Under the pieces are notes generated by a model. It saw only the letters and a program-made list of their open reading frames with translations, was not told the origin of the DNA and ran no database searches. The position numbers were made by a program, and so were the translations under genes. This document shows, in pieces, positions 49,556-54,972 of a DNA stretch of 64,000 bases. Source of the DNA: an uncultured Candidatus Rokubacteria bacterium (GTDB lineage: Bacteria > Methylomirabilota > Methylomirabilia > Rokubacteriales > CSP1-6); contig CAWBMV010000001.1 in NCBI GenBank assembly GCA_963789955.1, forward strand, positions 416,001 to 480,000, read 5' to 3'. Position 1 is the stretch's first letter; every line of letters begins with the position of its first letter.

Positions 49556-49575
49556 CGGCGCCTCGTCCTATCGTG

Positions 49576-49650
49576 TGGTTGGGGCGGGAGGATTCGAACC
49601 TCCGAATACGGGATCCAAAGTCCCGCGCCTTGCCGCTTGGCCACGCCCCA
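49576..49650 (-). tRNA. tRNA-Gln(TTG)
   Basis: TGGGGCGTGGCCAAGCGGCAAGGCGCGGGACT-TTG-GATCCC...GTTCGAATCC...CCCCAACCA; canonical position between ispE and prs. Confidence 0.96.
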
Positions 49651-49686
49651 TCGTGTGCCCTTCTTCGATGACCAACCACGCCGCCC

Positions 49687-50575
49687 TTACTTTCGAATCC
49701 GGATCGCGGGGCCCTGGAGCGCCCGCACCGCCCAGCATCCCCAGCGCGCGCGTGTCACGCGGGCACGGATCTGCCGCGCGTGATCGAACGAGCGCGCGAT
49801 CCCGAACACGGTGAGCCCGCTTCCTGACATCACGAGCGCCCAGCGCCCCCGCTGCCAGGAGCGCGGCCTCCATCTGCTCGACTTCACGGTACCGCGCACT
49901 GGCGACTCGTTCCAGCGTGTTGCCGAGCCTCGCCGCGACACGAGCCGGCTGCCGGCTCCGAAGCGCCGCGGCCATCGCGCGCGCCTGGGCCCCGTCAGAA
50001 TACATCGAGGCCACGACCCCTCCGTAGATCTCCGCCGTGCTCGCCGCGACGCGCGGATTCACGAGCACAAGCGCCAGCGCCGAGCTGGCCAGCGGCTCGA
50101 GACGCTCGCCGCGTCCCGTGCCCATCGCGGCGCCGCCGTGCAGGAAGAACGGGACGTCCATCCCGAGCTTCACCGCCGCTTCGGCCAGTCGCGCGGCCGA
50201 CCACCCGAGCCCCCACAGCCGGTTCAACCCGACGAGCACCGCGGCTGCGTCGGTCGATCCACCACCGAGACCGGCCGCGACGGGGATTCGCTTGTCCAAG
50301 GTGATCTTCACTCCCCGGCTCATCCCCGCCATCTTCCGGAGAGTCAGCGCCGCCTTGAGCGCCAGGTTGGTCCCGTCCGTCGGAACGTCGGAAGCGGTCG
50401 TCCGGAGCTCGAGAACGTCCGCTTCTTCGAGCACCAGCTTGTCGGACAGATCCACGGCCTGCATGACCGTGGCGATTTCATGGTAGCCGTCGTCCCGCCG
50501 GCCAAGTACCTCGAGCGCGAGGTTCACTTTGGCCGCTGCGCTGAGCACGAGGCGACGGGGCTTCCCCGACCGCAT
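49687..50575 (-). CDS. ispE: 4-diphosphocytidyl-2-C-methyl-D-erythritol kinase; apparent frameshift near 49835
   Basis: AKVNLAL, DGYHE, IPVAAGLGGGSTDAA, DVPFF; MSGSG motif continues in ORF 49687..49941. Confidence 0.92.
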
Positions 50576-50614
50576 CGACAAGACATCGAACCATAGCACG
50601 GGCGACTGGGCCTT

Positions 50615-51382
50615 TCAACGGATGGGCTGTGTTTTCGCCCCTTTCGGGATCGTCAGGGTGAAGCGCTCGTCGTCGATTCCCTGGTTCTCGACCAGGTTCT
50701 GATAGCTCACGGAGCCGGTGATGTAGGACATCGCCGCGTCGAGATCGAATCCCATCAATGCGCCGGCGCCGTCGCGCCGGTATTTGATCAGCGCGTTGAA
50801 CCGGCTGCCGAAGATCTGACGCTGCTGGATCACGCCAGTCCCAAGATCGAGCCACACCCGCTGGCGGACGCCGGATCTGGTCACCAGATTCAGTGACGGC
50901 CCGGTCGCGTCCGGCTCCAGGACTTCGGCGCTCCGGAGGTCGCGCGGTGCCGCGAGTCGCCCGGCCAGCACCGAGACGAGGTCGTCGGCTTCCAGGGGTA
51001 GCCCGAGGACTTTCGAGATCGTTTCCGAATCGGCGGGGCCCACGCGTGCCTCGTTCTTCAGCGCGTCGTAGGCCGTCACCTGGCCCTCGTGCACGGTGAC
51101 GACCATGAGCGGCGGACCGAACGGCGAGAGGGCTTCGAAGCGGACCGAGCTCGGCGAGCGAATGAGGAGGACGCCTCGAAGACGCTGCCGATCGCCGCCC
51201 TTCCTCAGGGAGACATCGGCGAGCGTACGCATGTCCGTGAGCTCGCCATAGCGCTCGGCGAGCAGAGCGAGCGCTCGACGGACGTCGTCGCTGATCGGTT
51301 CTCGAGATGGTGCGGTGGCGCAGGCGGCGAGCAACGCCACCTGCAGGAAGAGGAGGAGGCTACTGAGAGGCCTTCGGGCCAC
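50615..51382 (-). CDS. LolA/LolB-like fold lipoprotein (in the lolB position)
   Basis: LLAAC lipobox, RFEALSPFG motif, beta-rich; between TPR gene and ispE. Confidence 0.7.
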   Translation of the reverse strand: MARRPLSSLLLFLQVALLAACATAPSREPISDDVRRALALLAERYGELTDMRTLADVSLRKGGDRQRLRGVLLIRSPSSVRFEALSPFGPPLMVVTVHEGQVTAYDALKNEARVGPADSETISKVLGLPLEADDLVSVLAGRLAAPRDLRSAEVLEPDATGPSLNLVTRSGVRQRVWLDLGTGVIQQRQIFGSRFNALIKYRRDGAGALMGFDLDAAMSYITGSVSYQNLVENQGIDDERFTLTIPKGAKTQPIR

Positions 51383-53531
51383 CCTTGACCCGGCGCTGGC
51401 GATCCTTGAGGTCATCGACCTTCTTTTTGACCCCTTCGGCGGCCGGATCGAGCTGGAGCGCCTTCTCCCATGCAGCGAGGGCGTCCTGGTCGTTACCGTT
51501 CTTGACCAGTGCGTCGCCCAGGTGCTCATAGATGACGGGGTCCGGCTCCTTGGTCTTCATGACCGCCCGCTTGAGCTCCTTCAGCGCCTCCGGATACTTG
51601 CCCTGCTGGTAGTACGCCCAACCGAGGCTGTCGATGAAGTAGCCGTTTTCGGGCTCGAGGTCGAGGGCCTTGCCGATCAGCTGGATCGCTTCGTCGAGAT
51701 TTTGGCCCTTCTCGGCGTACATGTAGCCCACGTAGTTGTAGGCCTCGGCGTTCTTGGGATCCAGCGAGATCACGCGCCGGAACGAGGTGACCGCGTCGTT
51801 GAACCGCGACTGCTTCTCGTAGACGACGCCGAGCTGGAAGTGCAGATCCTTCTGCTTGTCGTCGAGGCCCAGGCCTTCCTGGAGCGTCTCGGCCGCGCGG
51901 TCGTACTCCTTGGCGCGGTAGTACGCCGTCCCGAGGTAGAGGAACAGCTCGGGGCGCTTGGGCTCCATGTTGACGGCTTCGCGCAGGGTCGAGATCGCCT
52001 CGTCGAACCGCTTGGCCCGGCCGTAGAGGAAGCCCAGCTGAACACGCGCGTCGATCGACCGCGGGTCGGCTCGAAGGATCCGCTCGAGCTCGGCCTTGGC
52101 TTCGGCGTCGCGTCCCGCGTCCATATACGTGGTGGCGAGGAAGTAGCGAGCGCGGAGATTCGAGGGCTCGAGGGCGACGACCCGACGGAAGGACTCGATC
52201 GCCTTGTCCCACATCTTCTGCTCGTAGTACACGGCGCCGAGCTTCATCCACGCGCGCGGGTTCTGCGGCGTGGCTTCGGCGACTCCTTCGAGCTCGATCT
52301 GCGCCTCGGGCAGGCGGCCCAGGCGAATCAGGAGATCCGCGAGCTTATCGGCGAACGCGGGATTGTCGGGGTTGGCCTTGACGGCGCGGCGATAGACTTC
52401 GATCGCCTCTTCGTTCTTGTGCAGCGCCTCGCCGTAGACCGCGCCGAGAGCGCTCCACGCGCCGTCATGATCGGGATCGATCTCGACGGCGGCGCTCAGG
52501 CGCGCGATCGCCTCGTCCCAGTTTTCGGTCTCGATCGCGAGCCGCCCGAGGAGGAACTGGGCCTGCGCCAGCCGCGGCTGCTGCTCGACCAGTCGGAGCA
52601 GGACGGCCCGCGCCTTGTCGTAGTTCTTCTGCTCGACGTAGATGCGCGCCAGGGTGAGATACGGCTCCTCGGAGCTCGGGCTCAGCTGGATGCAGCGCTC
52701 GAGCTCGGCCTCGGCTTCGGGAATCTTTCGCTGCGCGCGCAGGAGCTCGGCCAGGGTCATGTGGGTCGAGACCTGGTCCGGGGCCAGCTCCACGGCCTTT
52801 CGCGCCGCGATCACGGCTTCGTCGAGGTTGTCGGCGCGCATGAGCAGCTGGGCGAGCTGGGTCCAGAGGGCCGCCGAATTGGGGTCGCGCTTGATCGCGG
52901 TCCTCATGTACGGGACGGCGTCCTTGAACCGGCCCGCCTGGATGTTCATCTGCGCGACGCTGTAGGCGTAGTACGCGTCGCCGCGAGGATCGGCGACCGC
53001 GACCCGGCGCGGCAGCTGGTCGTCGTTGGTGATCGTCGGGTCGTGCGCGCTGGCGCAGCTCGCCAGCACCGTCGCGAGGGCGAGCACGGTCAGCCCCGGC
53101 CACGCTTTCGTCATGAGACGGCGGGCCGCCGCCGCGACCCCGGCGTCCGGGATGGCCGCCGCCGCTTCGTCGATTTCCTTCAGCGCGCGCGTGTCGAGTG
53201 CCCGGGCGGGTTGCGCGCTGGGGCGGGCCGACGCATCGGGTTCGACCGTGCCCGCCACGAAGCGGAGCGAGCGAACGGCGTCGAAGCGGTCGTGGAGACG
53301 GCGCGTCAGCTCTTCGCTGCGAAGCGTCAGCTCGTGGAGCCAGGGGGAATTGTCGACCGCGACGGTGAGACATCCGTCGGCGAAGCTCCGGGCCTGGGCG
53401 CGGCGGGCCGCGTCGGCGCCCACCACGTGAGGCCAGGCCCGACGGATACGCTGCTCGAGAAGGCGATCTCGCAGGTCGGGGACCGCGGTGAGCAAGAGAT
53501 CAGCGACGGCGCGCGGCGGTCGACTGTCCAT
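51360..53531 (-). CDS. DUF721/DciA-like domain fused to lipobox-containing multi-TPR protein
   Basis: N-terminus WPHVVG...LTVAVDNSPWLHEL (DUF721-like); internal LALATVLASC; many TPRs including AYNYVGYMYAE, DSLGWAYY, EHLGD. Confidence 0.85.
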   Translation of the reverse strand: MDSRPPRAVADLLLTAVPDLRDRLLEQRIRRAWPHVVGADAARRAQARSFADGCLTVAVDNSPWLHELTLRSEELTRRLHDRFDAVRSLRFVAGTVEPDASARPSAQPARALDTRALKEIDEAAAAIPDAGVAAAARRLMTKAWPGLTVLALATVLASCASAHDPTITNDDQLPRRVAVADPRGDAYYAYSVAQMNIQAGRFKDAVPYMRTAIKRDPNSAALWTQLAQLLMRADNLDEAVIAARKAVELAPDQVSTHMTLAELLRAQRKIPEAEAELERCIQLSPSSEEPYLTLARIYVEQKNYDKARAVLLRLVEQQPRLAQAQFLLGRLAIETENWDEAIARLSAAVEIDPDHDGAWSALGAVYGEALHKNEEAIEVYRRAVKANPDNPAFADKLADLLIRLGRLPEAQIELEGVAEATPQNPRAWMKLGAVYYEQKMWDKAIESFRRVVALEPSNLRARYFLATTYMDAGRDAEAKAELERILRADPRSIDARVQLGFLYGRAKRFDEAISTLREAVNMEPKRPELFLYLGTAYYRAKEYDRAAETLQEGLGLDDKQKDLHFQLGVVYEKQSRFNDAVTSFRRVISLDPKNAEAYNYVGYMYAEKGQNLDEAIQLIGKALDLEPENGYFIDSLGWAYYQQGKYPEALKELKRAVMKTKEPDPVIYEHLGDALVKNGNDQDALAAWEKALQLDPAAEGVKKKVDDLKDRQRRVKGGPKASQ

Positions 53532-53604
53532 GCTTTCGTATCATACATCCTCAGTGTAGCGGGCCGCGAGAGCGGTTGAGAACCCTGATATAGTGGCGTC
53601 AATC

Positions 53605-54972
53605 ATGGCAAAACCGAGGCGTGGTGACGTCCTCGATTTGACGATCGACGACCTCGCATTCGGTGGCGAGGGGGTCGGTCGGGTCCAGGGCTACGTCCTC
53701 TTCGTCCGCGGCGCGGTCCCGGGCGACCGTGTGCGGGCCAGGATCGTCGAGGCGCGCTCGCGATTCGGGCGCGCGGTGATCGAGTCGCTCGAGACGCCCT
53801 CCCCGGACCGAGTCGAAGCCCCCTGCGCCTACTTCGGCCGCTGCGGCGGCTGCCGCCTCCAGCACCTTTCGTACGCCGCCCAGCTCAGGTTCAAGGAAAA
53901 GCAGGTGCGCGACTGCCTCGAGCGGATCGGCGGGCTCGGCGAGTTCGAGCTCCGGCCCATCCTGGCCGCCCCCGATCCGTACGGGTACCGCAACAAGATG
54001 GAGTTCACGGTCGTGCCGGGTGGTAACGGGCCCGAGATCGGGCTGCACCAGGCCGACCGCTACGACGTGGTCCTGGACATCGAGCGCTGTCATCTGCAGT
54101 CGGAGACGATGAACACGCTGCTCGGCGAGCTGCGCGCTCAGTCCCGCGCGCGCCGGCTCTCCGTCTACGATCAGGATTCGGGCGCCGGGCTCTTGCGCTT
54201 CGCGACCGTGCGCGAAGGGCGCCGCACCGGCGAGGCGATGGTGAACATCGTCGCGGCCGCGCCGGACGTCGAAACCCTGACGCCGGTCGCCGAGCAGCTG
54301 CGCGCGCGCGTCCCGGCGGTGGCCAGCGTGGTCCTGAACGTGAACGCGAAGAAGGCGTCGGTCGCCGTGGGGACGGAGGAGCACCTCCTGCTCGGGCGCG
54401 ATCACATCCGCGAATCACTGGGCGGGCTCACGTTTCAGGTGTCCGCGAGCTCGTTCTTCCAGACGAACACGGTGCAGGCCGAGCGGCTCTTCCAGGTGGT
54501 CGAGGCCGCGTGCGAGCTCGACGGCACCGAGACGGTCATGGATCTCTATTCGGGCACGGGCGCCATCAGCCTCCTGCTGGCCCGACGCAGCCGCTGGGTC
54601 TACGGCATCGAGGTGTCCTCGGCCGCCGTGGCGGACGCGGTGCGAAACGCGCGCGAGAACGGGATCGAGAACTGCACGTTCCTCCCCGGCGAGGTGCGTC
54701 ACGTCCTGCCGACCCTGATGCGCGACGGCGTGCGCGCCGACGTCGTCGTGGCCGATCCGCCGCGCGCCGGTTTCCATCCCAAGGCGCTCAACGCGCTGGC
54801 CACGCTCGGCCCGGCGCGGCTCGTGTACGTGTCGTGCAATCCGTCCACGCTCGCGCGCGACGTCGGCGACCTGGTTCGGCAGGGCTATCGACTGGAGTGG
54901 GTCGAGCCCGTCGACATGTTTCCGCAGACGCCGCACATCGAGGCCGTCGCCCGTCTCCGCCGGGCCTCATGA
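53605..54972 (+). CDS. rlmD: 23S rRNA (uracil-C5)-methyltransferase RlmD/TrmA family
   Basis: TRAM domain, C-x5-CGGC, YRNK, FFQTN, DPPRAG, YVSCNP, DMFPQTPHIE. Confidence 0.92.
   Translation: MAKPRRGDVLDLTIDDLAFGGEGVGRVQGYVLFVRGAVPGDRVRARIVEARSRFGRAVIESLETPSPDRVEAPCAYFGRCGGCRLQHLSYAAQLRFKEKQVRDCLERIGGLGEFELRPILAAPDPYGYRNKMEFTVVPGGNGPEIGLHQADRYDVVLDIERCHLQSETMNTLLGELRAQSRARRLSVYDQDSGAGLLRFATVREGRRTGEAMVNIVAAAPDVETLTPVAEQLRARVPAVASVVLNVNAKKASVAVGTEEHLLLGRDHIRESLGGLTFQVSASSFFQTNTVQAERLFQVVEAACELDGTETVMDLYSGTGAISLLLARRSRWVYGIEVSSAAVADAVRNARENGIENCTFLPGEVRHVLPTLMRDGVRADVVVADPPRAGFHPKALNALATLGPARLVYVSCNPSTLARDVGDLVRQGYRLEWVEPVDMFPQTPHIEAVARLRRAS

Follow-up and report, generated by a model that had tools for sequence, protein, structure and literature searches.

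We describe a gene from a soil member of Candidatus Rokubacteria in which DciA and a tetratricopeptide repeat (TPR) lipoprotein of the cell envelope are encoded in one open reading frame (ORF), so that the signal peptide of the lipoprotein lies inside the chain. The gene is found at 51360..53531 on the minus strand of the window, by which we mean the whole stretch of 64,000 nucleotides (nt) analysed here (assembly GCA_963789955.1, contig CAWBMV010000001.1, positions 416,001 to 480,000). Most bacteria rely on DciA as their helicase loader, yet little is understood of how it is regulated. The fusion is present in many related genomes, and comparison with two-gene relatives indicates that it arose through small deletions between two neighbouring, overlapping genes and that it is recurrent within the family. 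We put at somewhat better than even the chance that the product is one precursor, which would be processed by Lgt and LspA at a conserved lipobox into DciA and the TPR lipoprotein.

Results and discussion

Layout of the fused gene

Only one ORF, of 723 amino acids (aa) with an ATG start, was found at 51360..53531(-). Its parts are listed below, with the kinds of evidence behind each in brackets; pN/pS is the ratio of nonsynonymous to synonymous change.

51360..53531, minus strand: DciA, an internal lipoprotein signal peptide and TPR repeats in a single ORF (ORF list, Pfam)
53259..53492, minus strand: DciA domain (DUF721, PF05258), residues 14-91 (Pfam, AlphaFold, Foldseek, pN/pS)
53193..53252, minus strand: variable linker of low model confidence, residues ~94-113 (AlphaFold, pN/pS)
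53094..53192, minus strand: conserved two-helix DciA tail ending ...AAAARRLMTKAW (AlphaFold, conservation, pN/pS)
53112..53114, minus strand: internal ATG (Met140) in the last DciA helix, a possible, unsupported second start (sequence)
53094..53102, minus strand: approximate junction of a 47-nt deletion relative to split relatives (DNA alignment)
53055..53099, minus strand: hydrophobic core PGLTVLALATVLAS and lipobox L-A-S-C, with Cys159 at 53057-53055 (sequence)
51363..53057, minus strand: predicted mature TPR lipoprotein, residues 159-723, with predicted export to the envelope (TPR Pfam families, pN/pS)

The original prediction, made from the sequence alone, had read the protein as DciA followed by an internal lipoprotein signal peptide and then TPRs, and both sequence and Pfam profiles bear this layout out. 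The DUF721 model PF05258 matches residues 14-91 with 61 bits when the 139-aa N-terminal piece is searched (cut-off 24), with 57.9 bits on the whole protein and with 61.6 bits in a scan of the whole genome, and many TPR families match the C-terminal part over residues ~190-700 (TPR_2 alone reaches 247 bits in 7 stretches). The junction reads ...AAAARRL-M140-TKAWPGLTVLALATVLAS-C159-ASAHD..., a charged stretch followed by 14 hydrophobic residues and then the lipobox L-A-S-C; Met140 (ATG 53114-53112) is followed by TKAWPGLTVLALATVLASC, which holds Cys159. A stop-free antisense frame of 754 aa at 51315-53579(+) spans the whole dciA-TPR gene; frames of this sort are common where GC content is very high, and this one is not a gene.

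The fusion is genuine

Fifteen of the 16 genomes of the genus were matched, and 14 of these 15 keep an uninterrupted frame of 657-728 aa over the junction, with no stop there and with 67-81% identity across the first 210 residues. One genome, G011 (66% complete, 64% identity), carries a TGA and frame changes within the dciA frame. The same in-frame junction occurs in 14 other species assemblies of the genus, which confirms that the fusion is not an assembly slip of this genome. The comparison with relatives mattered, and the window alone would have been insufficient, because the same assembly has an apparent frameshift in ispE. That frameshift, about 3.3 kilobases (kb) downstream, also speaks for the alternative that the join is an assembly indel, or that dciA is decaying after loss of its stop codon, as do three frame-broken fused relatives (G011 in the dciA frame, G181 and G183 further downstream). 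We nevertheless regard an artefact or a dying gene as highly improbable, given the presence of an in-frame junction in the 14 other genus assemblies and at 33 loci from 10 further genera, the low pN/pS of the DciA domain (0.18), and the outcome of the search for a second dciA and for dnaC/dnaI, neither of which was found.

Both halves are working genes, with DciA the sole helicase loader found

Given an alignment of 25 relatives, AlphaFold predicts for residues 1-200 a KH-like DUF721 fold in the N-terminal part, with a predicted local distance difference test score (pLDDT) of 92-97 over the domain at residues ~21-90. Residues 94-113 have no secondary structure in the model, with pLDDT falling to 55 in the block 101-110, and are followed by tail helices at 114-125 and 130-146 (pLDDT 82-86) and then by the signal-peptide stretch at low confidence. 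When this predicted structure was compared with the PDB by Foldseek, the first-ranked match was the DUF721 domain of Deinococcus radiodurans DciA (7ykm; target-normalised TM-score 0.80, 31% identity), and ranks 2-3 were Vibrio cholerae DciA in its DnaB-bound form (8a3v). The C-terminal tail of V. cholerae DciA is described as a helix hairpin that packs against the LH-DH module of DnaB and without which loading fails (PMC9912922). The helices at 114-125 and 130-146 are the obvious predicted counterpart of that DnaB-binding hairpin, and this two-helix tail is conserved in fused and split relatives alike.

Within the genus, where the mean synonymous difference is about 0.4-0.5, pN/pS was 0.18 in the DciA domain, 0.23 in the DciA tail and 0.19 in the TPR part, and it was higher in the linker (0.72) and the signal peptide (0.53). 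The low values show purifying selection on the DciA domain, its tail and the TPR part, and both halves are thus working genes.

The genome contains one match to PF05258, and DnaC/DnaI was not found in this 87% complete assembly, its three PF01695 matches being IstB of an IS21 element, DnaA and PhoH. The fused dciA is therefore the only helicase loader found in the assembly, which also encodes DnaB. The same holds more widely for the copy number of dciA, with a single match in every listed genome of this genus (g1 in our numbering of genera) and of g26. As a separate observation on the helicase itself, the DnaB_C match is split (positions 1-34 and 32-255, ~1 kb apart) within one 813-aa frame at G000:C1:482850-484673(+), ~3-5 kb past the end of the window and ~13 kb from dciA, which suggests an intein in the replicative helicase gene.

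Origin by deletion from a two-gene form

In the two-gene form a stand-alone dciA encodes about 155-175 aa. In split sister genera of the family its product has about 157-161 aa and ends ...RRLLTKAWRFPRERGAAR before the stop codon. The stop lies 8-25 codons after the tail motif, often in an ATGA or GTGA overlap, so that the TGA of dciA overlaps the ATG or GTG of a TPR gene in another frame (for example, MIRRVLGRVSVALAGAALAAC). When the DNA of four genus members was aligned with that of three split relatives from sister genera, the genus members showed one gap of 47 columns. It takes in the final codons and stop of dciA together with the Shine-Dalgarno (SD) motif of GAGG type, the ATG and the initial codons of the TPR gene. 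Because a gap of 47 nt shifts the frame by two, the dciA and TPR genes are now in frame, and the conserved DciA tail RRL(L/M)TKAW now forms the charged N-terminal region (n-region; RR..K) of the signal peptide.

The two-gene form otherwise resembles the fused one closely. The order of dciA followed by the TPR lipoprotein gene is identical in 89 of 89 loci, with a DUF4292-like lipoprotein gene next where longer stretches were read, and both the DciA tail motif and the mature lipoprotein equal those of the fused form. The difference is that the split TPR gene has its own start and, in 22 of 27 loci, an SD-like site, whereas in the fused form these have been deleted or have changed frame.

Spread and recurrence in Rokubacteria

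A profile of the DciA part matched 232 of 251 genomes of the phylum, 90 of these matches lying outside the listed set. Each locus was read individually because the length of the open frame is an unreliable proxy for fusion; this proxy was discarded, since G020, G026, G204, G223, G216, G205, G132 and G135 have long frames and are nonetheless split. We read 89 loci, comprising that of the source genome, those of 14 genus members and sets from outside the genus, in which were included all 39 listed matches with a frame of at least 500 aa save G224 (contig end), G020 and G026, plus one of 410 aa; split loci were drawn from 30 genera with 1-3 each. In this sample, which is biased towards fused candidates, 48 of 89 loci are fused in frame (including G181 and G183, whose frames break downstream) and 41 are split. 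The fused form therefore occurs in at least 48 of the 232 matched genomes. It is distributed over 11 genera, most heavily in g1 (15 loci) and g26 (19), followed by g19 (4), g20 and g55 (2 each) and g24, g31, g53 and g54 (1 each), while in g27 and g57 one locus of three is fused, and both genera thus contain fused and split loci. In two of the fused loci, L065 (G183) and L073 (G181), the junction is kept and the frame shifts a few codons past the lipobox Cys; both assemblies are of few contigs, and the breaks may be indel errors or real pseudogenes.

Junction sequences vary between the fused genera, and a tree of the DciA and TPR parts, built after removal of the junction, requires 9 changes of state, at least 6 of which are forced by well-supported branches, gains and losses being counted together. 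We take the variety of junctions and the tree to indicate that the fusion is recurrent within the family.

A large protein library gave a similar picture. Among the best 150 of 12,886 DciA representatives (E <= 0.001), most are 150-175 aa long, and 10 of 17 longer or odd ones that were read run from the DciA tail into a lipoprotein signal peptide, several of these 10 ending at contig ends. A further protein, P0005 (428 aa, metagenomic), is 87% identical to the present DciA up to ...KAWPGLTV; after WPGLTV it continues as a NicO-type metal-transporter membrane protein (PF03824, PF13386) in place of the TPR lipoprotein. Only one contig, of 2.2 kb, carries P0005, which may therefore be an assembly chimera; alternatively, DciA may be joined in a second way at this hydrophobic point.

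Translation of the lipoprotein part

We scanned the loci for an in-frame ATG, GTG or TTG 12-38 codons before the lipobox Cys and, using a simple motif list, for an SD motif of GGAG, GAGG or AGGA type 4-13 nt upstream. Among split loci, an SD-like motif was present in 22 of 27 (16/18 and 6/9) and a candidate start codon was lacking in 0 of 18, with 9 further loci each having one. Among fused loci, by comparison, an SD-like motif was present in 2 of 45, both 38 codons upstream and doubtful, and 12 of 45 had no candidate start codon; related species are non-independent in all of these counts. From the lack of an SD motif in 43 of 45 fused loci and of a start codon in 12 of 45, which is the strongest argument, we infer that the lipoprotein in the fused form is translated as a continuation of DciA. 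The internal ATG at 53114, for which no obvious ribosome binding site had been seen in the original prediction, indeed has no GGAG, GAGG or AGGA 4-13 nt upstream.

A different account would have the TPR lipoprotein made mainly from an SD-independent internal start at an NTG codon (Met140 here), with few of the ribosomes that start at dciA reading through and the fused chain a tolerated minor by-product. There is a pattern of codons to recommend it. The window itself has an ATG 19 codons before the Cys, and codon 140 in 15 genus members is ATG in 3, TTG in 5, CTG in 6 and CTC in 1, so that NTG is found in 14 of 15 even though CTC makes up 59% of Leu codons in these genes and TTG 4.7%. Across all loci, ATG, GTG or TTG stands at this site more commonly in fused loci (29/48) than in split loci (10/33). 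The dciA gene is also without an evident SD motif, so initiation without one is feasible in these bacteria, and some internal initiation in some species is possible. The excess of start codons at the site is, however, due mainly to the large fused genera g1 and g26, and an M, L or V at this position is a feature of the DciA helix that split relatives share. Within the genus, CTG in six members and CTC in one occupy the site, and CTC is found there in the fused genera g20, g31, g53 and g57. Internal initiation cannot be the general route, and DciA, lacking a stop codon, must even on this account be made as a fused chain. For these reasons, and given the scarcity of start codons and SD motifs in the fused loci at large, we consider a predominantly internal start unlikely.

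Two related candidates were rejected. Selection for a start codon at codon 140 was striking within the genus and weakened once the 81 motif-bearing loci were tabulated by genus. A conserved TGA in the +1 frame (xTGAcg) was weighed as a stop concealed within DciA and dropped: one genus member lacks it, it has no evident frameshift signal, and the conserved DciA tail is in frame 0.

The internal signal peptide

Three features mark lipoprotein signal peptides: positive charge in the n-region, ~7-22 residues of hydrophobic core, and a lipobox with the consensus [LVI][ASTVI][GAS]C. The signal peptide in the window, RRLMTK-AWPGLTVLALATVLAS-C, fits all three. Its unusual feature is its position, at residues ~137-159 behind a folded DciA of 140 residues; it would be N-terminal only if Met140 were the start. 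A script recovered the lipobox Cys in 45 of 48 fused loci, and the three misses were L015, in which LAGC is seen by reading, and two frame-broken loci. The hydrophobic stretch covers 13-21 residues in fused loci (median 16) and 12-23 in split loci (median 13), and Ala follows the Cys in 43 of 45 fused and 31 of 33 split loci. Judged by length, a predicted hydrophobic region (h-region) of 13-21 residues is short for a membrane anchor. Twin-arginine (Tat) export, prompted by the RR in RRLLTK, was rejected as a requirement, as many split relatives have a single Arg and ordinary short lipoprotein signals. The genome encodes the enzymes expected to act on such a signal, namely lgt (PF01790, 245 bits) and lspA (PF01252, 125 bits), along with an RseP-type M50 protease and two SppA-type S49 proteases. 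RseP-like and SppA-like protease families clear spent signal peptides.

These features raise the question of whether the hydrophobic stretch is cut or remains in place. If it remained, the product would be a permanent bitopic protein with an uncleaved anchor, DciA inside and the TPR part in the periplasm, and replication would be coupled physically to the envelope. The frame has indeed stayed unbroken over long evolutionary time in two large genera, and the positive charges that precede the hydrophobic stretch give the layout of a type II membrane protein. An uncleaved anchor would need no lipobox, however, so the retention of the lipobox Cys and of the small residues before it in the scored fused loci, together with an h-region of 13-21 residues, counts against it. 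The alternation of fused and split forms, seen within g27 and g57 and no fewer than 6 times across the tree, likewise argues against an obligate covalent link, and split genes have a signal peptide of just the same kind. We find a permanent bitopic protein quite improbable. The original prediction had offered two readings, this bitopic link and a polyprotein cut by LspA, and the comparative data fit the second better. A purpose of linking replication with the envelope is unsupported: the join arose from small deletions and behaves as interchangeable with the two-gene form.

Proposed processing of one precursor

We therefore return to a single precursor cleaved at the lipobox, for which the following course may be proposed. 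Ribosomes would start at the ATG of dciA, on an mRNA that is probably leaderless, and translate all 723 codons. The internal hydrophobic stretch would insert so that DciA faces the cytoplasm and the TPR part is exported, Lgt would lipidate Cys159, and LspA would cut between Ser158 and Cys159, releasing the mature TPR lipoprotein as normal. DciA(1-158) would then remain in the inner membrane by its hydrophobic tail of 14 residues, and it may either load DnaB while tethered or be freed by RseP-like or SppA-like proteases. If the precursor is processed in this way, both forms of the locus would yield the same end products, which would explain why fused and split forms interchange so frequently.

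Several points weigh against this account, beginning with the codon pattern at position 140, the possible internal initiation and the non-independent counts described above. Cleavage, lipidation and topology are all steps that we infer from sequence, and we know of no tested case in which LspA acts on a signal peptide behind a folded domain of 140 residues. In the model, the last DciA helix abuts the hydrophobic stretch, so that a tethered DciA would have to bind DnaB right at the membrane surface. RNA contigs, which are short and from one run, match 51308-51645 and 53345-53508; the junction lies outside both.

Precedents for parts of this scheme come from other systems. In the hepatitis C virus (HCV) core-E1 polyprotein, as outlined in one article, core is released by signal-peptide peptidase after a first cut by signal peptidase (PMC5402940). 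The likeness is that the signal peptide of an exported protein forms the end of the cytoplasmic protein before it, which is anchored by this peptide once the two are separated and is then freed by an intramembrane protease; the same course is proposed here. The difference is that HCV involves a viral polyprotein at the eukaryotic endoplasmic reticulum, whereas the present case would involve bacterial Lgt and LspA with RseP or SppA and a chromosomal gene pair. Among bacteria, the FbcH cytochrome b-c1 precursor of Bradyrhizobium is a two-protein precursor split at an internal signal peptide, an example that our literature search did not confirm. Its halves are membrane or periplasmic parts of one complex and are separated by type I signal peptidase; here, in contrast, the two parts have unrelated functions and would be separated by the type II enzyme.

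A more speculative extension is that the signal peptide serves as a switchable membrane tether of the sole loader. DciA would then be born anchored, in a 1:1 ratio with the lipoprotein, and be freed by LspA and an intramembrane protease, and initiation of replication would be gated by the flux of lipoprotein export, that is, by envelope growth. We think the odds are well against such gating.

Gene neighbourhood and promoter region

Two further features flank the fused gene.

53540..53545, minus strand: TATGAT, a -10-like hexamer 8 nt upstream of the dciA ATG (sequence)
50615..51415, minus strand: the next gene, a lipoprotein with a weak DUF4292 match, whose start overlaps the end of the TPR frame (ORF list, Pfam)

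The TATGAT had been noted in the original prediction as lying 8 nt before ATG 53531, and we find it there at 53545-53540. In most family loci, across many genera, a GTATGATA or GTATCAT box precedes the dciA start codon by 7-9 nt (TGATA was counted in 38 of 89 loci, with TATCAT variants scored by eye), and dciA is without an evident SD motif both in this genome and in the family loci. Because the TATGAT/TATCAT box sits only 7-9 nt before the start, these features suggest that the mRNA of the dciA operon is leaderless or nearly so. A scan of 51200-53700 on both strands for two-hexamer sigma-70 promoters gave no match, and therefore supports neither an upstream nor an internal promoter.

Upstream of dciA lies the divergent rlmD, and downstream are the DUF4292-like lipoprotein gene, then ispE, tRNA-Gln at 49576-49650(-) and prs. 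The operon context given in the original prediction stands for ispE, tRNA-Gln and prs; the gene that it called lolB matches DUF4292 alone, and weakly (24.9 bits against a cut-off of 23), with no recognisable LolB. If started at ATG 51415, the DUF4292-like frame shares ~56 nt (51360-51415) with the 3' end of the TPR gene. The apparent ispE frameshift in this assembly lies near 49830 (frames 49687-49941 and 49568-50599, minus strand). The N-terminal ~240 residues of IspE (GHMP_kinases_N; TIGR00154, 204.6 bits) are in one frame, and its C-terminal part (...VMSGSGLTVFG...) is in another, whose stop at 49687 closely precedes tRNA-Gln. The long frame continues through the tRNA-Gln gene. The break is either an assembly indel or a genuine defect of an essential gene.

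Relation to earlier work and significance

The DciA-TPR architecture itself is already catalogued. Blaine et al. 2022 list 36 DciA homologs with TPR domains from Nitrospinae and Candidatus Rokubacteria and group the TPRs under 'domains associated with DNA replication' (bioRxiv 10.1101/2022.01.24.477630), and the terms membrane, transmembrane, signal peptide, lipoprotein, periplasm and operon are all absent from the main text of that preprint. Among the papers listed by a text search, it was the only one to mention both DciA and tetratricopeptide. Going by its main text, the proteins described there belong to the same family and lineage as the one studied here; the differences are that we find the TPR part to be the product of the neighbouring envelope gene, placed behind a lipoprotein signal peptide, and that the join can be traced to a small deletion and is recurrent. 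The published reading of DciA-TPR proteins as cytoplasmic replication modules thus looks wrong. Relative to that main text, four points appear to be new: that a signal peptide lies at the junction, that a 47-nt deletion gave rise to the join, that the join recurs within one family, and that the internal SD motif and start codon are absent.

The locus is a clean example of how a single small deletion can merge two overlapping genes, with the now redundant ribosome binding site and start codon gone from the frame of the product. As a consequence, the sole copy of DciA in this genome cannot be made without the signal peptide of an envelope lipoprotein. Rokubacteria therefore offer a natural and recurrent test case for two questions: whether Sec, Lgt and LspA can process a signal peptide that follows a folded domain, and whether a membrane-tethered DciA is functional or must first be released. 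If the signal peptide does act as a switchable tether, this protein would be the first natural LspA substrate whose signal peptide carries a folded cytoplasmic domain.

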